Assembly: GCA_049516875.1 (NCBI GenBank)
Contig: JBEKSS010000006.1
Location: forward strand, 32,001 to 96,000
Reading direction: 5' to 3'
DNA from: Candidatus Bathyarchaeia archaeon
Lineage (GTDB): Archaea; Thermoproteota; Bathyarchaeia; Bathyarchaeales; Bathycorpusculaceae
DNA: 64,000 nucleotides
Made by a program: the position numbers and the translations under genes. A model generated the notes under the pieces. The model was given only the letters and a program-made list of their open reading frames with translations. It ran no database searches and was not told where the DNA came from. This document shows, piece after piece, positions 28,432 through 37,799 of the stretch (positions within the stretch are counted from its first letter, which is position 1; every line of letters starts with the position of its first letter).

Positions 28432-31400
28432 GTGACCGCCAAATTCGGAACTACTTCTGAAAAAGGCTTGACGGCAGATTATCGCCCGCTTGAACTTGAG
28501 AAAGAAATACGTGAATTCTGGGAAAGAAACCGTGTGCAACAGAAGCTGACGCTTTTCAAAGAGAAGAACAACAACGGCGTCTTGGGCTACGTGGAAGGGC
28601 CGCCTACGCTTAACGGCATACCCCATGTGGGTCATGCGAGAGGCCGCGTTATGAAGGATCTTCGCTACCGATGGAAAACGATGCAGGGCTACTACGTACC
28701 TTTCTGGGCCGGATGGGACTGTCAAGGCTTGCCAGTGGAGTTAGAAGTGGAAAAGCTGCTGGGAGTGAAGAACAAGCGGGAACTGCTGGAAAAAGTGGGA
28801 ATGGAACACTTCATACGGGAATGCAAGAAAGCCATAATGAAATATCATAAGGAATGGGTGGCAGTTGACAGCAGACTCGGCGTCTTCATGGATCATGGCA
28901 AGGCGTACTGGACCTACAAAGATGAGTATATTGAAAGGGAATGGCAAATCCTCAAGCGTGCTTGGGACCAAGGCCTGCTGGAAGAAGGATACTATGTGGT
29001 CGCCTACTGCCCAGGCTGTCAAACAAGCTTGAGCAGCGCAGAGGTAGGCTACGAAGGCGCATACAAAGTAGTCGAGGATCCGAGCCTGTACTTCAAATTC
29101 AAACTCGCCGGCAGGCGGGACGAGTACTTCCTCGTCTGGACGACTATGCCTTTCACCCTCATAACCGACACGATGCTGGCCGTGCATCCTGAAGCAGAAT
29201 ACGCGAAAGTCAAAGTCAACGAAGAAAAATGGATACTTGCCAAGCCACGCGTTCAGCCAGTCATGCAGGAGTTAGGAATGGAAAAATACGAAATGATAGA
29301 AACTGTGATGGGAAAAGACCTTGAAGGAACGGGGTATGACTATCCGTTCAAGGACATAGTTCCTGAACAAGCAGAGCTTGAGAAAAAACATCCACTTGTA
29401 CATAAGGTAATACTTGAAGACTTCGTAGACGTGAACACCGCAACAGGAGTCGTGCACCAATCGCCAGGAAACGGTGAAGAGGACTTTTTCGCTGCACAAA
29501 AAAGAGGCGTTCCAATCTTCGCACCCTTCGACGACGAAGTCAAGTTCACAAAAGAAGCGGGGGTTTTCAACGGCAAATTCGCAAGAGACACGGACGCCAT
29601 TGTGGTTGAGGAACTGCGAAAGAGAGGCCTACTCGTTTCAGCTGAAACCCTGAAACATGAATATCCAACGTGCTGGCGTTCCCACCACAAGCTTGTGTGG
29701 TTAGCTAGAAAAGAGTACTTTCTGAGGACTGACAGAATAAGCTCGAAAGTCTTGGAAGCGGCTGAGAGAGTGAACTACTTTTACGAAAGCCCAAGAAACC
29801 GTTTCATATCCTTCTTGAAAGAAGGCAAACCGTGGTGCATATCCCGAGAGCGAGTCTGGGGAGCACCATTGCCTGTATGGAAATGCGAAAAGTGCGGAAC
29901 ACAAACACTTGTGGCAAGCAAGAAAGAACTTCTCGCGAAAGCTCAAGAGGAGCCACAGGCAGACTTTGAACTGCACAAACCATGGGTAGACCGCATAACC
30001 TTCAAATGCGAAAAATGCGGAGGGGTAATGCGCAGAGAAGATTTCGTGCTCGACGCTTGGCACAACAGTGGAGCGTCACCCTACGCCAGATTCACGGATG
30101 AAGAATTCAAAAAGTACGTGCCAGTCGACTATCTCACAGAAGCCATGGACCAGACAAGAGGATGGGCAAACACGCTGCTCTTGGAATACGTTATACTGAC
30201 CGGAAAAGCAGAACCGCCCTACAGGGCGTTCCTGTTTCAGGGTCTAACCCAGGATGCCCAAGGCAGAAAAATGAGTAAGAGCCTCGGAAACGTGATAGAG
30301 GCAAATAAAGCACTGGAGAAATATTCCTCGGACGTTTTCAGATTTTACGTGCTGAGAAAATGTCCTCCGCCGGATTCAAACGATTTTGATCCTCAAGAAC
30401 TGAGCCGGCGTCCGTATCAAGTGCTGTCCACGTTGTACCATCTCAGTAGATTCTTCGCTCAAAACTCCGAATTCGACGGCTTTGATCCTGAAGAACACAC
30501 GCTTGAATCTGCAAAACGTGGAAAGCAGTTGAAAAGCCCAGACCTGTGGCTCCTTTCAAGGCTTCAACTAACAATAGAGACCTATACGGCAAAGCTGGAA
30601 TCATGCGAATTCAACGTAGCCCTCGCTGCATTGGAAGATGCGGTAATAGAAGATCTGAGCAGACTTTACGTGCCCATGGTTCGGAAGGAACTGTGGACAG
30701 ACGACCCAGAGACTCTGGGCAGAAGGCTCGCGGTGTACTCGACACTATGGTATGTGCTCAAAACTATAACGCTGCTCTTCAATCCCGTTACGCCTTGCCT
30801 CAGTGAGGCGCTGTATCAGAAGGTCTACAGACAACTCGACTCAACGCTTCCCGAAACAGTGAATCTTGAAGACTGGCCGAAACCCGACGAAAGACTTCGT
30901 GACAGGGCAACAGAGGAGGACTTTCAGACACTGTTCAGCACAGTGTCACTGGTCTATTCCGCGAGGCAGAATGCTAAGCTGAAGAGAAGATGGCCTCTCA
31001 GCAAGATAGTGATAGTGGCTCCTGAAAGAGTCCGCAGGGCCCTCAAGAACGTCGAAGACCAGCTCCTAGAACTGACAAACGTCAAAACCGTCGAGTACCC
31101 TGAAACGGCCCCTCAATATGTCGCCGCAGAAGGTTGGACATCCGCGTCCGAGCACGATACACAAGTCTTCTTAGACGCCCATCGTGACCAGAAACTACTT
31201 GGCGAAGGATTGATGCGAGACTTGGCCAGAAGAGTACAGGTCCTTAGGAAAGAACTCGGGTACATGCCAACCGACGTGCTAGACGCCGTCCACATAGCTG
31301 AACTTGACCAGGAAACCATCCAACTCCTTCAACCCTACCTGCAACACATGAAGGAGCTTACACGCACAAAGAACATCCATCTGCGAATCAAACGCGAAGA

Positions 31401-31488
31401 AACCGAGACAGAATGGCACGAGTCACAATTAGACGAAAAGAGAGTCTACATTGCAATCCGTGCGGAAAGCAGCAAGCAGTCGACATGA
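28432..31488 (+). CDS. ileS: Isoleucine--tRNA ligase (archaeal type)
   Basis: EGPP, HVGH, GWDCQGLPVE, WTTMPFT, WCISRER, KMSKS. Confidence 0.96.
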   Translation: MTAKFGTTSEKGLTADYRPLELEKEIREFWERNRVQQKLTLFKEKNNNGVLGYVEGPPTLNGIPHVGHARGRVMKDLRYRWKTMQGYYVPFWAGWDCQGLPVELEVEKLLGVKNKRELLEKVGMEHFIRECKKAIMKYHKEWVAVDSRLGVFMDHGKAYWTYKDEYIEREWQILKRAWDQGLLEEGYYVVAYCPGCQTSLSSAEVGYEGAYKVVEDPSLYFKFKLAGRRDEYFLVWTTMPFTLITDTMLAVHPEAEYAKVKVNEEKWILAKPRVQPVMQELGMEKYEMIETVMGKDLEGTGYDYPFKDIVPEQAELEKKHPLVHKVILEDFVDVNTATGVVHQSPGNGEEDFFAAQKRGVPIFAPFDDEVKFTKEAGVFNGKFARDTDAIVVEELRKRGLLVSAETLKHEYPTCWRSHHKLVWLARKEYFLRTDRISSKVLEAAERVNYFYESPRNRFISFLKEGKPWCISRERVWGAPLPVWKCEKCGTQTLVASKKELLAKAQEEPQADFELHKPWVDRITFKCEKCGGVMRREDFVLDAWHNSGASPYARFTDEEFKKYVPVDYLTEAMDQTRGWANTLLLEYVILTGKAEPPYRAFLFQGLTQDAQGRKMSKSLGNVIEANKALEKYSSDVFRFYVLRKCPPPDSNDFDPQELSRRPYQVLSTLYHLSRFFAQNSEFDGFDPEEHTLESAKRGKQLKSPDLWLLSRLQLTIETYTAKLESCEFNVALAALEDAVIEDLSRLYVPMVRKELWTDDPETLGRRLAVYSTLWYVLKTITLLFNPVTPCLSEALYQKVYRQLDSTLPETVNLEDWPKPDERLRDRATEEDFQTLFSTVSLVYSARQNAKLKRRWPLSKIVIVAPERVRRALKNVEDQLLELTNVKTVEYPETAPQYVAAEGWTSASEHDTQVFLDAHRDQKLLGEGLMRDLARRVQVLRKELGYMPTDVLDAVHIAELDQETIQLLQPYLQHMKELTRTKNIHLRIKREETETEWHESQLDEKRVYIAIRAESSKQST

Positions 31489-32386: not shown

Positions 32387-32461
32387 GGGCCGGTAGTTCA
32401 GCTTGGTATGAACGCCGCATTCGCAATGCGGAAGTCGTGGGTCCAAATCCCGCCCGGTCCA
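32387..32461 (+). tRNA. tRNA-Ala (anticodon CGC)
   Basis: Acceptor GGGCCGG/CCGGTCC with G3:U70; anticodon arm CCGCA-TTCGCAA-TGCGG; no intron; CCA not encoded. Confidence 0.95.
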
Positions 32462-32498
32462 CTCCCATTTTTGGGTTCAAGTCTAACAAATCAGCCCC

Positions 32499-33135: not shown

Positions 33136-33696
33136 ATGTCTAAGAAGATGCCATCGAAAGACGAGGCATTGGAAGCACTGGACTTCATAGTTAGCGTTCT
33201 GAAGGAACATGAAAAGGACCTGGATCGCTTGATAAACGAGCTTGGAAGCGTGACTGAGAAGATGGGCGACACTGGGGAATTGAGCGGTAAGGTGGAAAGA
33301 GTTGAGGAACGACTAAGTACGCTGCAGAACGAGATAACGAACCTCATAACGTACCTTTCAGCCCCACATGAGGCGTCGCCTGCATCGTCACCGCAGCCAG
33401 TGCCTGTCGCTCAGAAGAGCGAGGGCTTGCAGGTCAGGGAGACACGTGGGCCCCCTGTTATCCTTCGTTGCAAGCAATGGGAAGACTTTCAAGCAATGGC
33501 CGCGGAGGCTCAGACACTGTCTTTCATGTACCGAGAGGCTGAAAAAACGTTCCAAGTCGATGCGGTGAAAGACAGCCAGATCATGACCTACAGCGGCGAA
33601 CTGCCGAAATACAACTCGCTACTAAAGGCATGGCTCTGCAAACAATTGAACGTTCCGGAGAAAAAAGCTCTAGAAGGCGTCTTGGCTATAGGCTAA
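33136..33696 (+). CDS. Hypothetical coiled-coil protein
   Basis: N-terminal heptad repeats, Pro/Ser linker, globular C-terminus; SD present. Confidence 0.8.
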   Translation: MSKKMPSKDEALEALDFIVSVLKEHEKDLDRLINELGSVTEKMGDTGELSGKVERVEERLSTLQNEITNLITYLSAPHEASPASSPQPVPVAQKSEGLQVRETRGPPVILRCKQWEDFQAMAAEAQTLSFMYREAEKTFQVDAVKDSQIMTYSGELPKYNSLLKAWLCKQLNVPEKKALEGVLAIG

Positions 33697-33771
33697 TGTC
33701 ATCCCTTGAACGTTTGTAGCTGACTGTGATGCAGTAACCTTTTTATAATCGACTTGTATCTTAAGTCTTAA

Positions 33772-33919
33772 GACGGTATGAAGGGGCGCGAGGTTGAAGG
33801 TTAACCACATCTTGCCAAAAATGTCTTTTTTCCGTTTTTCGAAGCCTTCTCCTTTCTCCTCAATAACGGAAAATGGCTGTGTGGCTACCCAAAAAACGAT
33901 GAAAGCCCTCCATCTCGTC
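33772..33919 (+). ncRNA. Candidate structured RNA or long 5' leader
   Basis: Four nested helices found by hand; TATA-like TTTTATAA about 30 nt upstream. Confidence 0.5.
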
Positions 33920-33945
33920 CATGAGTTTTTCCCAAGGTGAAATCA

Positions 33946-34092
33946 ATGAAGGGGAACACTCTAATCCCACAGAAACTTCATGAGGAATTCACAGACTTCC
34001 AGAAGACGATGGAGGAACTGTATCTTCTGAAACGCGTGGCTGCAGACTTAAAAAGCTACAGAAGAATGATTCACCTGAAACGCTACGACTAA
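33946..34092 (+). CDS. 48-aa hypothetical microprotein (not in ORF track)
   Basis: AAGGTGA SD; MKGNTLIPQKLHEEFTDFQKTMEELYLLKRVAADLKSYRRMIHLKRYD. Confidence 0.6.
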   Translation: MKGNTLIPQKLHEEFTDFQKTMEELYLLKRVAADLKSYRRMIHLKRYD

Positions 34093-34265
34093 TAGGCACC
34101 ACAACATAGCAGCACCTTGTATTCGACTTGTTGAGGACATTGTTCAAACCGAAAAGCGCCGAGTCTCTGAGGATATGGTTTTTGCACCAAGGAAGGCCAA
34201 ACCCTGGACGGTATGCTTAAAATATCGGTTTCAAAATTCTGATAAACGCCTACAGAGGGTTATCA

Positions 34266-35687
34266 GTGGACGGCGCTGCGAATTTCTCCGGAAAGGAAGA
34301 AATCCTCAAGTTGATTTCAAACAACAACGTAAGAATCCTCAACCTTTGCCATGTTCCCGAAGACGGAAGATTGAAGACCCTGAGTTTCTCAATCGCAAAC
34401 AGAGATAGAGTCAACGAGATTTTAGATTTCGGTGAAAGAGTTGACGGTTCAAGTCTGTTCTCGTTTGTGGAGCCTGGCAAAAGCGATATCTACATAATGC
34501 CCGGCACGGATAGAGCTTTTGTTGATCCATTTTCAACCTTGCCCGCAGTAAACATCATGTGCGACTATTTGGGTGAAAACGGGAAACCCTTGGATATAGC
34601 TCCGAAAACTGTTTTGGTGCGGGCTGAAGAACAGCTGAGTTCTTCAGCACATATCACTCTGAAAGCCCTGGTCGAGCTTGAGTTCTACATAATTGCGAAA
34701 CAGCAGACTGAAGTTCTTTTTCCAGCATGGTCGGACAAGAACTATCATGAATCTGCGCCCTTCGCCAAGTTTCAGGACTTGAGGAATGAAGTTTTAGCGA
34801 CTTTAGACCTTGTGGGCATACCCACAAAATACGCGCATGGAGAAGTCGGTCTAGCTTATGACAAGAACGACACCCTTATGGAACAGCATGAAATAGAGTT
34901 CAAACCACAGAATCTTACCAAGATGGCGGAAACATTAGCGATTGCAAAGTGGGTTATCAGAAACGTTTGCTCCAGACACGGGGTATCTGTCTCTTTCATC
35001 CCCAAGATTGACTTGAACCACGCTGGAACAGGGATGCACATACACGTGTGTGGGCTTAAGAACGGCAACAACGTGGTTTCCAATCCTGACGGAACTCTGA
35101 GCCTTGAAGCGTTGAAGATCATAGGAGGCTTATTGAAGCTCGCACCAAGTCTTGCGGCCTTTGGAAATCCCACGCCGGTATCATACCTGCGGTTCATTGC
35201 ACGCAAAGAATCACCGATGCACATCTGCTGGAGCGCCCGAAACCGTCTGGCTCTAATACGCATACCATTGTGGTGGAGCTTCAAGAAAGCAAGCGAAAAA
35301 GCAGAGAGCTGCAGAGAAACCTTCGAATACAGGGCCCCAGACGCCTTTGCCAATGCTTACCTCCTCTTTGCTGGACTGACCGTGGCAGCGGGTTATGGGC
35401 TGAAGAACTCGAAAGAATCGCTGAAGCTTGCTGAAGACTTGCACATTGAAGCAGCTGAAAACGAAGGCAAGAATCTTGAGGTCTTGCCACGCTCATGCAG
35501 CGAAGCAGTCGAAAATCTTGAGAGAGACAGGCATTATTATGAAGCAACCGGGGTCTTCCCAAAGAGACTCATCGACGAAACTGTGAGAAAACTGAGAGCT
35601 TTCGAAGATAAGAACATTTGGAAAGAGTTGTCCAGCAACCCAGAGAAAATAGAAAAGACAATAATGGAATACATTCACTACGGCTAG
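34266..35687 (+). CDS. Glutamine synthetase-family protein (divergent)
   Basis: VDGSS, ELEFY, EQHEIE, GTGMHIH, RNRLALIRIP, EYRAPD. Confidence 0.9.
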   Translation: MDGAANFSGKEEILKLISNNNVRILNLCHVPEDGRLKTLSFSIANRDRVNEILDFGERVDGSSLFSFVEPGKSDIYIMPGTDRAFVDPFSTLPAVNIMCDYLGENGKPLDIAPKTVLVRAEEQLSSSAHITLKALVELEFYIIAKQQTEVLFPAWSDKNYHESAPFAKFQDLRNEVLATLDLVGIPTKYAHGEVGLAYDKNDTLMEQHEIEFKPQNLTKMAETLAIAKWVIRNVCSRHGVSVSFIPKIDLNHAGTGMHIHVCGLKNGNNVVSNPDGTLSLEALKIIGGLLKLAPSLAAFGNPTPVSYLRFIARKESPMHICWSARNRLALIRIPLWWSFKKASEKAESCRETFEYRAPDAFANAYLLFAGLTVAAGYGLKNSKESLKLAEDLHIEAAENEGKNLEVLPRSCSEAVENLERDRHYYEATGVFPKRLIDETVRKLRAFEDKNIWKELSSNPEKIEKTIMEYIHYG

Positions 35688-35776: not shown

Positions 35777-35854
35777 GGGCCCGTGGCTCAGTCAGGCTAG
35801 AGCGGCGGACTCTTAATCCGTAGGTCGCGGGTTCAATTCCCGTCGGGCCCGCCA
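35777..35854 (+). tRNA. tRNA-Lys (anticodon CTT)
   Basis: GGGCCCG/CGGGCCC acceptor; loop CTCTTAA; GGTTCAATTCC T arm; encoded CCA. Confidence 0.96.
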
Positions 35855-36002
35855 GACCCTTTTTGGAAAAGAGACTTCAAAGAGAAACTGAGGGTTCCAG
35901 CGTTTGGGCATTTTGTTTGTTGGCGATATTGAGGACGCGAAAACCATAAATGCCTTCACCTTGGTCTAATACAACATCGCTGTGTCAAACCATGTGAAAG
36001 AG

Positions 36003-36662
36003 ATGAGCGGTTTGGTTAAAGTGATATGGCACGGTCATGCGTGCTTCGAACTGCAGGGAGAAGGCGTCACAATAGTGACTGATCCTTTTAAGGGAATTGG
36101 TATTCCGGAGCCTAAAGCGGCTGCTGACATCGTGCTTTGTTCCCATAGCCACCAAGATCACAACAACGTCAAACCGGTCTTGGGGAAAGAGGGACAGATG
36201 CTGGAAAGTTTCGTAGGCTCCAAAAAAGTGAAAGGAGTGTCCATGAAAGGCGTTGCTGCTTTTCATGATGAAACGAAGGGTTCCAAACGCGGGAAAAATA
36301 GCATCTACACCTTCAGCTTGGATGGCGTACAGTTCTGCCACCTCGGAGACTTGGGACACGAGTTATCCTCTGCAACTGTTGAGGAGATAGGAAAGGTCGA
36401 TGTATTGTTTGTCCCTGTGGGAGGATACTTCACCATAGGACCCGAAACTGCCACCAATGTCTGCGAAAAGTTGAAGCCCAAGATAATATTTCCCATGCAC
36501 TATCGGATGCCAAGGCTTCCCTCTATGTTTGACCTGTTGAAGACGGTTGATGATTTCTTGGAGGGAAAGAAAAACATAGAGAGGAATAAAGGGCCTGTCG
36601 TGAACATCGAAGAGCATAAATTGCCTAAGGAAACAAAGATAATTGTTCTGTCCCTAGAATAG
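36003..36662 (+). CDS. MBL-fold metallohydrolase
   Basis: WHGHACF, SHSHQDH, HLGDLG, PMHY. Confidence 0.9.
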   Translation: MSGLVKVIWHGHACFELQGEGVTIVTDPFKGIGIPEPKAAADIVLCSHSHQDHNNVKPVLGKEGQMLESFVGSKKVKGVSMKGVAAFHDETKGSKRGKNSIYTFSLDGVQFCHLGDLGHELSSATVEEIGKVDVLFVPVGGYFTIGPETATNVCEKLKPKIIFPMHYRMPRLPSMFDLLKTVDDFLEGKKNIERNKGPVVNIEEHKLPKETKIIVLSLE

Positions 36663-36764: not shown

Positions 36765-37799
36765 TCACAGTTTGTCTCTTGCTGCTTTCACCGCTTTCAC
36801 TGTCCTAGCTAGGAGAAGCTGTGCCGCCTCCTGTGTGGGCCATCCTCCCAGGCCGCAGTCGGGCCCTGTGAATGTCATCCTGTCTCCGTACTTGTCTTTG
36901 GCGGTTTCAAACCTTTTTCGTATGATTCTCTCGTCTTCGACCATTTGCTCGGCGTTTGGTTTCGTTATTCCCTTGTCATAAAGCTCTGCCATGATTGAGT
37001 TTATGTCTGTCCTGGATACACCTACTCGTATCTGCTTGTCTGCTTGATCAAGCATGTTTTTTGACACGCTGTCAATGTTTTTCGGGGATGCCGCATATTC
37101 AATTGATAGGACATCGATGTTCCTGACGTTGAGCAGATCGGTGATCTTGGATGGTGAATGAAGGTGAATCTGTCTTGTTGCGCCATCGAAGTTGAAGGCT
37201 GTTTCCAGAGCACTTTGAATTACTTCTTTGTCTGTGAAGATGTCTTGAAAGCCAAAACTCGGCTCGTCCAAAGAGACAGCGACTGTCTGGACGTATTTTG
37301 AGTTTAAGGTCGAGTTTTTCGCAAACCGCTTAACGTTCTCTGCGAACATTTGGAGGATGTCCTCGTGGACGACAGACCCGATTTCCTTCAAGTATAGCTC
37401 GACTGGTCCCATCATACACACCCTGAGCCGCACCTTTTCTCCTGTTTCTTCGTAGAGTCTTTTGGCTTCACAGCCGATGACATACACCTCCGGCAGTACT
37501 GCGCGTTCTGTGTTGATCAAGTATGTTCCTTCATTCATCGAATCTCTGAGAGGGTCTGCCAACTGTCTGTGCATATCGTAATGCTGTGGATAGTTAACGA
37601 TATCGAGTCCTGCCTCGACTTTTTTCATGAAAGAGCCTATCACTACTTGATTGAAATTGTTCAACAAGAATTCGTCCTTGCCAAGGTGTTTTCCCTCGAT
37701 TATTGCTTTTCTTGCAACGCGATATGCCTCTTCAAACACTTTACTATCGGTATACGCAGGCAGGGGAAAACTACCGACATCATCAACAAGGGTTGCCAT
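36765..37799 (-). CDS. Core (single-barrel MetE-like) methionine synthase family protein
   Basis: DDVGSFP, GPVEL, LDEPS, GPDCGL. Confidence 0.8.
   Translation of the reverse strand: MATLVDDVGSFPLPAYTDSKVFEEAYRVARKAIIEGKHLGKDEFLLNNFNQVVIGSFMKKVEAGLDIVNYPQHYDMHRQLADPLRDSMNEGTYLINTERAVLPEVYVIGCEAKRLYEETGEKVRLRVCMMGPVELYLKEIGSVVHEDILQMFAENVKRFAKNSTLNSKYVQTVAVSLDEPSFGFQDIFTDKEVIQSALETAFNFDGATRQIHLHSPSKITDLLNVRNIDVLSIEYAASPKNIDSVSKNMLDQADKQIRVGVSRTDINSIMAELYDKGITKPNAEQMVEDERIIRKRFETAKDKYGDRMTFTGPDCGLGGWPTQEAAQLLLARTVKAVKAARDKL

Follow-up and report, generated by a model that had tools for sequence, protein, structure and literature searches.

In archaea, introns of tRNA and rRNA are removed at bulge–helix–bulge (BHB) motifs, which, like those that release the tRNA intronic circular RNAs (tricRNAs) of metazoans and like the motif described below, consist of two 3-nt bulges around a 4-bp helix; in the tRNA intron rule, reasoned here from the canonical 37/38 intron, cleavage follows the second base of each bulge. 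The machinery, composed of the splicing endonuclease EndA and the ligase RtcB, serves tRNA intron removal and the excision of precursor rRNA (pre-rRNA). To our knowledge, all archaeal circles so far traced to BHB excision are either by-products (tRNA introns and one intron of a 5′ untranslated region, 5′ UTR) or rRNA intermediates. The locus described here lies in a 64,000-nt stretch (the window) of the genome of a Candidatus Bathyarchaeia archaeon (GenBank assembly GCA_049516875.1, contig JBEKSS010000006.1, positions 32,001–96,000, forward strand; coordinates below are those of the window). There is strong support for reading positions 33741–33925 (+ strand) as a non-coding RNA gene that stands alone and belongs to a Bathyarchaeia lineage, with a rod-shaped transcript of ~150 nt that is equally well supported and from which an inner segment of 97 nt is released as a circle. 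The biogenesis, BHB excision followed by ligation, is of a known kind; the gene is new, having its own promoter and the excised circle as its conserved product. No published description of the RNA was found in the literature on non-coding RNA of Bathyarchaeia or on archaeal circular RNA, BHB motifs and RtcB, nor under the loop sequence.

The excerpts of published work drawn on here describe several systems that share features with this locus. Archaeal BHB introns occur, as here, in genomes that encode EndA and RtcB, and their excised part is circular and stable (PMC7714728, PMC12918454, PMC4536317). In HVO_1309 of Haloferax volcanii, a transcript that is neither tRNA nor rRNA carries a BHB segment upstream of an open reading frame (ORF) and releases it as a circle (PMC7714728), and the circular pre-16S and pre-23S intermediates of archaea arise by the same cut-and-ligate route (PMC12918454). 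Small, abundant, circular and non-coding RNAs, comprising C/D box small RNAs (sRNAs) and other non-coding RNAs (ncRNAs), are described from Sulfolobus, Pyrococcus and Thermococcus (PMC3326292, PMC9014305), and among the circular ncRNAs of Sulfolobus are some of unknown function (PMC3326292). Compared with BHB introns of tRNA and rRNA, the host transcript in the window is neither of the two and has short, poorly conserved flanks; what is conserved is the ‘intron’ itself, which has an invariant loop and is made from its own promoter.

Gene, circle and excision motif

The features of the RNA gene are given below; helices are those of the minimum-free-energy (MFE) fold made on 33765–33925 (+ strand, 161 nt), and counts of rows refer to the 96 distinct full-length rows of the alignment of relatives described in the next section.

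33741–33748, + strand: TATA box TTTTATAA; all 19 aligned relatives that extend this far have a TATA-like motif ([T]TTATA or TTTATA) in this column
33759–33774, + strand: TCTTAAGTCTTAAGAC, a conserved element separating the TATA box from the first helix, nearly invariant in the alignment
33772–33776 with 33915–33919, and 33778–33780 with 33911–33913, + strand: outermost pairings of the MFE fold
33783–33787, partner 33905–33909, + strand: outer helix P1 of the MFE fold, 5′ strand GGGGC, on the exon side; compensatory changes at 7 of 7 pairs
33793–33796, + strand: 5′ strand of the BHB central helix, GUUG (GUUG in 91 of 96 rows)
33797–33799, + strand: BHB bulge 1, AAG (AAG in 83 of 96 rows, 3 nt long in 95 of 96); 5′ cut between 33798 and 33799
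33799–33895, + strand: mature circular RNA of 97 nt, in which helices P2–P5 form a rod that ends in the 17-nt loop
33805–33810 with 33879–33884, + strand: inner helix of the MFE fold
33814–33817 with 33874–33877, + strand: helix GCCA/UGGC of the MFE fold
33828–33836 with 33865–33873, + strand: perfect 9-bp helix UUUUCCGUU/AACGGAAAA of the MFE fold
33828–33873, + strand: apical hairpin, made up of the 9-bp helix, a short upper helix and the loop, with a core that is nearly invariant between genera
33843–33859, + strand: invariant 17-nt loop AGCCUUCUCCUUUCUCC, the presumed working end, antisense to the trailer of pre-16S rRNA
33890–33893, + strand: 3′ strand of the BHB central helix, CAAA (CAAC in 50, CAAA in 33, CAAU in 7 and others in 6 of 96 rows)
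33894–33896, + strand: BHB bulge 2, AAA (A-N-A in 86 of 96 rows); 3′ cut between 33895 and 33896
33897–33925, + strand: 3′ flank on the exon side, with CGAUGAA, the 3′ strand of P1 (33905–33909) and further pairing with the 5′ flank in the MFE fold

From its position and conservation, TTTTATAA appears to be the promoter element of the RNA gene, with a putative transcription start near 33770, and TCTTAAGTCTTAAGAC is probably the initiator region together with the start of the 5′ flank; the same region persists as UAAGUCUUACGACGG in diverged copies of sister families. The apical loop region holds UUCUCCU two times (33847–33853 and 33854–33860).

RNA data were taken from Logan contigs of four metatranscriptome runs belonging to four studies, which a run search showed to share a few sequence words with the stretch, and were mapped on 33600–34200 at 80% likeness. 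Over the RNA gene, cover in all four runs is confined to 33797–33895, with a depth of zero at 33600–33788 and 33915–33998 and no cover over the 3′ flank (33897–33925). Every run contains a joint at which a contig goes back upon itself, from 33893 to 33797 with 2 ambiguous bases in runs X1 and X4, and from 33886 to 33797 with 7 other letters, from 33894 to 33826, and at others in runs X2 and X3. The contigs are 127, 127, 127, 125 and 124 nt long, corresponding to circles of 97, 97, 97, 95 and 94 nt plus 30 nt, which is the excess expected for a closed cycle if Logan unitigs use 31-letter words (the word length being taken from the index of the run-finder). As their sequences differ, the contig variants come from several relatives, with the joint nonetheless at the homologous place. 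Circle contigs dominate, with a summed depth of up to 416 against 2.2 for the contig over the downstream ORF, contig depth being a poor measure. The accumulating form is thus a circular RNA, and excision of the inner 97 nt (33799–33895) at the two bulges, with joining of the ends, is strongly supported.

That there is no circle, and that the back-joined contigs are an artefact of a de Bruijn cycle through a repeat, of DNA contamination or of tandem DNA copies in other strains, is highly improbable. Such an origin could be sought in the use of contigs rather than raw reads and in the A-rich stretch in which the junction lies. It has to contend with the recurrence of the same joint at the homologous place in four of four runs, from four studies and in several sequence variants, with a 31-mer being unable to bridge the joint via a 2-base repeat, and with the zero cover of the flanking DNA, which makes DNA carry-over unlikely. 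Tandem copies are absent from all 131 distinct genomic places, and the joint coincides exactly with the prediction from the conserved BHB.

The two strands of the BHB motif read G-(GUUG)-(AA/G)-GC on the 5′ side and GC-(CAAN)-(NA/A)-C on the 3′ side, with the cut at the slash. All four pairs of the central helix form in 58 of the 96 rows, three in 37 and two in 1; the base following bulge 2 is C in every row and pairs with the G preceding GUUG in 94. Cleavage after the second base of each bulge predicts the segment 33799–33895, 97 nt, matching the contigs. The junctions of relatives are also as predicted, namely GCCGACAA+GG in contigs resembling L002/L003, GCCAACUA+GGC in those resembling L036 and GCC+AAAAA+GG in those resembling L026 (by part, GCCGAC-AA-GG, GCCAAC-UA-GGC and GCC-AAAAA-GG). 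BHB registers that take the whole of P2 GGC/GCC as the intron-side helix h′ were discarded, with predicted junctions 1–2 bases too long, as were RNase P with tRNase Z, exonuclease trimming with an Rnl-type ligase, and a ribozyme, the GUUG/CAAN register fitting every checkable junction. The intron-side helix h′ (P2 onward) is present and covaries. On the exon side, a 5-bp helix follows an A-A mismatch in the class of loci without the downstream microprotein described below.

The genome encodes one RtcB (598.7 bits) and two ORFs with the EndA domain (tRNA_int_endo; 190 and 187 aa, 101.7 and 77.3 bits). Because the exon-side helix is weak in the microprotein-bearing class, an endonuclease of broad specificity would be needed, and two EndA subunits of ~190 aa presumably indicate the heterotetrameric, broad-specificity type. 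An ATP-dependent RNA ligase domain was found in the genome only below cut-off (24.1 compared with 27 bits). EndA and RtcB are the putative processing enzymes. In the proposed route, a transcript from the gene’s own promoter would fold into the rod, be cut by way of the BHB at both bulges and have the ends of the excised part joined, giving a 97-nt circular rod that is closed by a small loop on one side and capped on the other by the invariant 17-nt CU-rich loop.

Several observations count against this account of excision. The RNA evidence comes from assembled contigs of relatives (90–99% alike), rather than raw reads of this organism, and such contigs are silent on strand, on 5′ and 3′ ends and on true abundance. 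No exon–exon joint is seen in the contigs of the four runs. The three junction readings given above lean on the most similar loci rather than on the relatives’ own genomes, and a further junction, AAAA+GGGCUAACC, fits only with one extra G-C pair that is absent from all loci examined. In the window’s own class, the exon-side helix consists of one G-C pair followed by mismatches before P1, a relaxed form of the motif.

Conservation and distribution

The nested helices, the CU-rich loop, the TATA-like sequence, the 48-aa ORF and the glutamine synthetase (GS)-like gene recorded in a preliminary description, made from the sequence of the window, are all present, and compensatory changes across relatives bear out its claim of a real structured ncRNA. 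The conservation was traced by a DNA search of 41 related genomes, which found the region in 23 (19 of 24 in the own family), with similarity concentrated at 33725–33913. In the alignment of relatives, the outer helix varies by compensatory substitution (for example, GGAGGGC/GCCCUCC compared with GAAUGGU/ACCAUUC), the sequence TCTTAAGTCTTA(A/C)GA(C/T) is nearly invariant, and the apical hairpin is almost letter-for-letter constant; two single-stranded words, GGUUGAAGGC and GCCAA(C/A)AAAC, are conserved. Individual folds of 19 relatives yield the same rod.

A covariance model was built from 10 sequences, and 100 of 140 loci (L001 and L022–L120) were aligned to it, giving 99 distinct rows; 98 of the 100 loci are full-length and 2 hold the hairpin only. 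Pairing occurs in 92.8% of the helix cells, compared with 84.8% in shuffles, a value reached by none of 500 shuffles, and drops to 29–47% in a control with the partner slid by 1–3 columns. Double-sided changes are found at 21 of 33 pairs; a reservation attaches to these counts, which lean towards the structure because the alignment was fitted to the model, with a margin that is still large. U-G pairs in the apical helix, one of which is present in 67 rows, are compatible with the + strand only.

The first check proposed in the preliminary description, a comparison of folding energy with shuffles, failed, and this too speaks against the structured transcript: the linear 161-nt + strand folds at −39.8 kcal/mol (z −1.01), which 36 of 200 shuffles equal. 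The 97-nt inner part folded as a circle reaches −16.5 kcal/mol compared with a shuffle mean of −7.6 (z −3.0), with 1 of 200 mononucleotide shuffles as low. The minus strand of the 161-nt region folds slightly better than the plus strand (z −2.16). An RNA encoded there was nevertheless discounted, since only the + strand agrees with the TATA box, with the BHB cleavage rule and with the U-G pairs.

RNAalifold on a plain MAFFT alignment did not find the rod and chose instead a pairing of GAGG-UU-GAAGGC with the loop word GCCUUC-U-CCUU, which was not kept as structure. The 5′ strand of the BHB, GAGG-UU-GAAGGC (33790–33801), is complementary to this part of the loop (GCCUUC-U-CCUU, 33844–33854) over 10 pairs; as both partners are invariant, the complementarity cannot be tested by covariation. 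On sequence grounds, the finished circle might pair in this way with its own precursor, or one circle with another.

The RNA matches no Rfam family, so that the second check proposed in the preliminary description, which had itself recognised no family, was negative. A scan of the window with Rfam 15 at gathering scores gave two tRNAs only, and an E-value scan of 33600–34300 gave at best BsrC (25.8 bits, cut-off 38) and mir-316 (15.1 bits), both dismissed as sub-threshold chance matches. Signal recognition particle (SRP) RNA, RNase P RNA and 5S rRNA are located elsewhere in the genome, above their cut-offs, so the RNA is not a diverged version of these universal RNAs. Rfam likewise gave no match of small nucleolar RNA (snoRNA) type for box C/D or H/ACA. 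On inspection, the order of the C-like and D-like words is wrong and both lie beyond the limits of the mature circle, and an ACA follows P1 in some relatives only, ~21 nt from the internal loop. The kink-turn suggested earlier for the internal loop had to be given up, its UUGA being part of the BHB central helix and bulge 1, so that the GA sits at the cleavage site, while the conserved A-rich strand comprises the other side of that helix and bulge 2; the strand from P2 to GAUGA measures 6–7 nt rather than 3, and GAUGA is missing from loci without the microprotein (for example, L022, L028 and L112–L114).

An exact scan for the 22-base loop word, with one genome per species, gave at least 120 stretches; among the matches listed (80 titles), 78 are metagenome-assembled genomes (MAGs) of Candidatus Bathyarchaeia or Bathyarchaeota and 2 are titled Acidiferrales and Acidoferrum (Acidobacteriota). 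These two loci, L027 and L045, carry the RNA together with an upstream protein and a microprotein of Bathyarchaeia type, and their contigs are probably misbinned. The 22-mer around the loop is invariant over ~35 genera; allowing up to 2 mismatches, it occurs in 94 of 103 genomes of the own family, in the one genome of one sister family and in none of 296 other genomes of the class. A covariance-model search of 151 sampled genomes (strict filters, 20 candidates scored per genome) found the RNA in 20, including the window’s own, the rest being in four families of one order (14 of 15, 1 of 1, 3 of 4 and 1 of 5 genomes). By these sequence searches, the RNA is confined, as far as found, to one Bathyarchaeia family and three sister families. 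Copies in sister families differ in their stems; what they share with the others is the loop, the leader word and the two words GAGGUUGAAGG and CCAACAAGCGAUGAA. As the loop is retained where the stems have diverged, it is presumed to be the working part.

The genome of the window has one copy. Some other genomes, including G349, G223 and G244, hold two or three loop-bearing copies or variants (for example, AGAAGCCTTCTCCTTTCTTCTC; loci L041, L043, L037/L117, L056/L083 and L028), of which L041 keeps the apical hairpin alone on different lower stems and L043 the 5′ half alone; these extra copies are not preceded by the 186-aa gene described below. In one large genus of the own family, genomes G136, G164 and G159 give weak matches to the RNA model (L148–L150, E-values 1e-8 to 1e-10), and the 186-aa protein is unmatched in all three.

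The loop, pre-16S rRNA and alternative roles

The 16S rRNA gene is unassembled in the window’s genome, and its 23S rRNA gene is cut off at the end of contig C17; relatives were therefore used for the comparison with pre-16S rRNA, comprising 24 loci of the own family (20 plus L212, L215, L216 and L220). In all 24, the 16S leader contains CUCC-AA(A/U)-UCCA and the trailer UGGA-GGAG-(A/C)AA-G, situated 18–35 nt past the mature 3′ end, and the two strands form a BHB around the 16S rRNA. This agrees with excerpts of a published study in which many Bathyarchaeia have a BHB around 16S (PMC12918454). The loop of the circle, UUCUCC-UUU-CUCC-UC, is antisense to the trailer strand GA-GGAG-AAA-GGAGAA, its UUU facing the bulge. 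Its pairing partner is GAGGAGAAAG (10 nt) or GAGGAG-c-AAGGAGAA, located exactly at the 3′ strand of the 16S BHB. Trailers of the AAA type match over 10–12 contiguous bases, and those of the CAA type over 6+8 around one mismatch. When the loop was compared with the 150-nt trailer, at most 10 of 200 shuffled loops were as good in 15 of 20 loci. GAGGAG[AC]AA is absent from the 23 trailers of other families and the trailer motif from three sister-genus genomes without the RNA, whereas the trailers of the three sister-family genomes whose circle gene has diverged contain GGAGGGGAAAG, which pairs with the loop via one G-U.

In the 23S flanks and in mature 16S rRNA the loop has no comparable partner. 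Against the 23S leaders and trailers of three genomes it was no better than shuffles in 5 of 6 flanks, one leader giving 19 of 200, and its best duplex with mature 16S rRNA (−29.1 kcal/mol, near the 515 region) lies within the range of shuffled rRNA (−26.6 to −30.1) and is not significant.

A number of results tell against a role in pre-16S maturation. In the remaining five of the 20 loci, 11, 17, 21, 22 and 44 of 200 shuffled loops were as good, and the contiguous match of 8–12 nt compares with a shuffle mean of 7.0–8.7 and a shuffle maximum of 10–15. In the three sister-family loci, the loop was no better than shuffles (159, 25 and 72 of 200). Since the families are kin, the co-occurrence of RNA and trailer motif amounts to about one independent contrast. 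G128, a genome of the own family that is 96% complete, has the 16S motif and no RNA was found in it, and the three genomes of its genus mentioned above (G136, G159 and G164) have only weak matches to the RNA model; at L148 the apical hairpin is present and the strands GGUUGAAGG/GCCAAC are absent, so that, judged from its sequence, this RNA may not be circularised. The likeness of the loop to the 16S leader could also stem from ancestry, not function.

As these statistics are modest, a role in 16S maturation can only be inferred. From the complementarity, it is possible, if somewhat short of probable, that the loop works by pairing with the 3′ trailer of pre-16S rRNA at its processing site. In doing so it would be a competitor of the 16S leader strand, and the processing site would be masked or remodelled. 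The fuller proposal is of a dedicated circular antisense RNA, the product of EndA and RtcB, whose loop would fill in the bulge by pairing with the 3′ strand of the pre-16S BHB and which would thereby regulate the maturation of small-subunit rRNA in trans or act as its chaperone; it is a tentative one, and we regard it with some doubt. Roles in pre-16S maturation, at Shine–Dalgarno (SD) sequences and in protein binding are not mutually exclusive. The nearest neighbours of the gene are the following.

33136–33696, + strand: gene of a 186-aa protein with an N-terminal coiled coil and a C-terminal α/β domain, the conserved upstream neighbour
33946–34092, + strand: conserved 48-aa microprotein ORF, from ATG at 33946 to the stop at 34092 (also listed from GTG at 33937, as 51 aa)
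34266–35687: GS-like ORF of 473 aa (Gln-synt_C, 3.4e-63; Gln-synt_N)

Neighbours were counted with tblastn on 140 loci, which represent 131 distinct places; as the loci were chosen by similarity to the RNA, the counts describe this set only. At 121 of the 131 places the 186-aa gene precedes the RNA on the same strand (median distance from match end to loop word, 145 nt). The microprotein ORF follows, also on the same strand, at 84; both are present at 82 and neither at 8, the last being mostly extra copies and contig ends.

The 186-aa protein exceeds the cut-off of no Pfam or NCBIfam family and has 2591 homologues, labelled hypothetical or given non-specific automatic names. Its AlphaFold model (mean predicted local distance difference test score (pLDDT) 78) has a confident N-terminal helical hairpin and C-terminal α/β domain. 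The latter has no sequence-level match among solved chains; its first-ranked structural match is chain Ae of the 50S subunit of Pyrobaculum calidifontis (VIA-align Z 7.9, root-mean-square deviation 2.2 Å, 61 of 66 residues), unnamed in the output and taken to be eL38 from adjacent rows of eukaryotic L38. Foldseek matched the domain to chains of SRP9/14 and eL38 with an E-value of 0.017 and a probability of 0.99–1.0. The modelled fold hints at RNA binding. Full-length matches are restricted to the four families in which the RNA occurs (11 of 15 genomes in f1, 1 of 1 in f2, 4 of 4 in f6 and 5 of 5 in f7). The N-terminal motif ALEALDFI..VL.EHEKDLD (residues ~7–48; 33136–33260) also opens ORFs of other Bathyarchaeia families, mostly of ~160–230 aa, with C-terminal parts that are unmatched to the 186-aa protein, and may mark a wider family with a common coiled-coil head.

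The microprotein has 54 homologues and belongs to no Pfam family. One contig of a relative covers 34004–34091 at a depth of 2.2, and the ORF is probably read from the promoter of the RNA gene, to judge from the layout of the region. A consistent oligo-T terminator is absent between the 3′ flank and the ORF in most genera, so where the ORF follows, the circle may double as a 5′-UTR intron; in this class the transcript would probably also be the mRNA of the 48-aa ORF, and the circle formally an intron of its 5′ UTR. Loci without the ORF (for example, L022, L028 and L112–L114) have another promoter context, lack CGAUGAA and have the 5-bp exon-side helix.

The GS-like ORF scores 253 bits compared with the NCBIfam GlnA equivalog cut-off of 429, falls below the models of type III and γ-glutamylputrescine synthetases as well, and is by sequence a divergent enzyme of the GS family. 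Other neighbours are a 1018-aa ORF at 28432–31488 that resembles isoleucyl-tRNA synthetase on reading of its sequence, tRNA-Ala(CGC) at 32387–32462, tRNA-Lys(CUU) at 35777–35854, a protein of metallo-β-lactamase fold at 35982–36662 and, on the minus strand at 36765–37799, a 344-aa ORF without a Pfam family.

The preliminary description had ventured a possible tie to nitrogen regulation and, as one of two options, a translational leader. The former finds no support, the GS link not being conserved, with a GS match at only 4 of 20 long loci, 2 of them upstream on the opposite strand. A reading close to the latter would make the element mainly a cis-acting BHB intron in the 5′ UTR of the microprotein mRNA, tuning translation or stability of the 48-aa ORF, with the circle as a by-product. 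Such a reading could appeal to the missing terminator, to the 84 of 131 places where the ORF follows in the same orientation, its match beginning 76–140 nt after the loop word, and to the start codon (AUG or GUG) within the conserved CGAUGAA of the 3′ flank, present in the ORF-bearing class only; HVO_1309, in the excerpts available of its description, is a precedent for a 5′-UTR BHB intron that gives a circle (PMC7714728). At 47 of the 131 places, however, the RNA has no small ORF behind it and this function is impossible, so that the RNA is a gene in its own right and not merely a leader. The excised part is also far more conserved than its flanks, with a 22-mer unchanged across ~35 genera and a loop retained in sister families with altered stems, and the circle dominates the RNA contigs, by the poor measure of depth noted above. 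Taken as the whole explanation, a cis-acting intron is improbable. The double anti-SD loop of the same description is real in that the CUCCU repeats equal the last five bases of the 16S rRNA of relatives (...GGAUCACCUCCU), and the view taken there, of a general trans-acting anti-SD RNA that represses or sponges ribosome-binding sites of AGGAG type, could also cite the suitability of a circular form for a long-lived sponge. Among the five best complements of the loop in the genome, two fall on start regions, one of 16/18 directly ahead of an ATG (C9:16594) and one on the minus strand of C1 over the start of a PhoU-type regulator. Such matches are expected because any CU-rich oligonucleotide finds ribosome-binding sites; moreover, one of the two belongs to a doubtful 51-aa ORF, all 17 nt of the loop are invariant where an anti-SD function needs a pentamer, and against the start region of the 186-aa gene none of 19 loci had at most 10 of 200 shuffles as good. 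A general anti-SD role is unlikely, if less so than a purely cis-acting one. Of the five genome-wide complements, one matches at 17/18 and four at 16/18; the former lies on contig C2, outside the window (+ strand, 174737–174754), inside an ORF resembling histone deacetylases and acetoin-utilisation proteins, with ~0.004 such matches expected in a random genome of the same size, a figure that purine-rich codons inflate.

The circle could instead be a scaffold or decoy for a protein, either the 186-aa protein or a binder of the CU-rich 3′ end of 16S rRNA, with RNA pairing secondary. The tight synteny with the 186-aa gene (121 of 131 places), which the preliminary description had overlooked along with the circle itself, and the occurrence of RNA and protein in the same four families are in keeping with this, as is the predicted likeness of the C-terminal domain to the RNA-binding eL38 and SRP9/14. 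The apical stem, moreover, is invariant in its letters and not just in its pairing, which suggests sequence-specific recognition. On the other side, the Z of 7.9 is within the range that the tool calls common, and in f6 none of the three genomes with both has the two genes side by side (the protein gene is on a different contig in G150 and in G039, and in G156 it lies on the opposite strand at a distance of ~0.9 kb); both facts also detract from a partnership of circle and protein in general. Four genomes of one genus lack a protein match, three of them with a weak RNA match and one with none. We consider a scaffold or decoy rather unlikely as the principal role; from gene order and fold, the circle may all the same act as a particle with the protein encoded upstream. 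What we hold with good, though not complete, confidence is the reading of the locus as a stand-alone Bathyarchaeia RNA gene that yields a BHB-excised 97-nt circle, with pairing of its loop to pre-16S rRNA as the proposed role.

Significance and relation to known systems

The loop is unchanged in more than 100 species-level genomes of a major uncultured lineage of soil, peat and sediment, and the circle is abundant enough to assemble from the metatranscriptomes of four studies. The locus is a concrete case of a functional ‘intron-only’ RNA gene in archaea and supplies a missing RNA family for the annotation of Bathyarchaeia genomes, and the unannotated 186-aa protein family, with its 2591 homologues, is a possible RNA-binding partner. 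Were the pre-16S role true, the circle would be a regulator or chaperone made by the very machinery on which it acts, and an archaeal functional counterpart of pre-rRNA-binding snoRNAs; it might also explain the presence or absence of a circular 16S stage among Bathyarchaeia, as reported in the portion of the source drawn on (PMC12918454).

The nearest described cases are the circular ncRNAs of Sulfolobus and the 5′-UTR intron of Haloferax. The intron of HVO_1309 measures 46 nt, is without a known function of its own and, as far as the cited excerpts go, is always within an mRNA (PMC7714728), whereas the circle gene described here also occurs free of an ORF (47 of 131 places) and has the circle as its most conserved part. 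Against the circular pre-rRNAs, the product here is 97 nt rather than 1.5–3 kb and free of rRNA, and its loop is antisense to the 16S processing stem and not part of it; the outer helices of the own-family 16S BHB and of the RNA gene both begin with GGGC/GCCC. The circular sRNAs of Sulfolobus, Pyrococcus and Thermococcus are, in the sections cited, complete sRNAs whose own two ends an ATP-dependent ligase has joined (PMC3326292, PMC9014305). In the RNA of the window, by comparison, C/D boxes are absent and the junction lies at a BHB, and a ligase of that kind falls under the cut-off in the genome.

Two further comparisons concern the way in which the loop might act. The intron of pre-tRNA-Trp of Euryarchaeota is a C/D box guide within a BHB intron that guides by base pairing in trans or in cis; here the C/D architecture is absent, and the proposed target is a pre-rRNA spacer and not a modification site. 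U3 snoRNA of eukaryotes uses an exposed pyrimidine-rich loop to pair with a site rich in purines within a pre-rRNA spacer, and CU- or C-rich anti-SD sRNAs of bacteria, such as RsaE/RoxS, pair in like manner with ribosome-binding sites. The likeness to these RNAs is one of working principle only, with no homology of sequence or structure, and the RNA described here differs from them in being circular, made by way of a BHB motif and archaeal.

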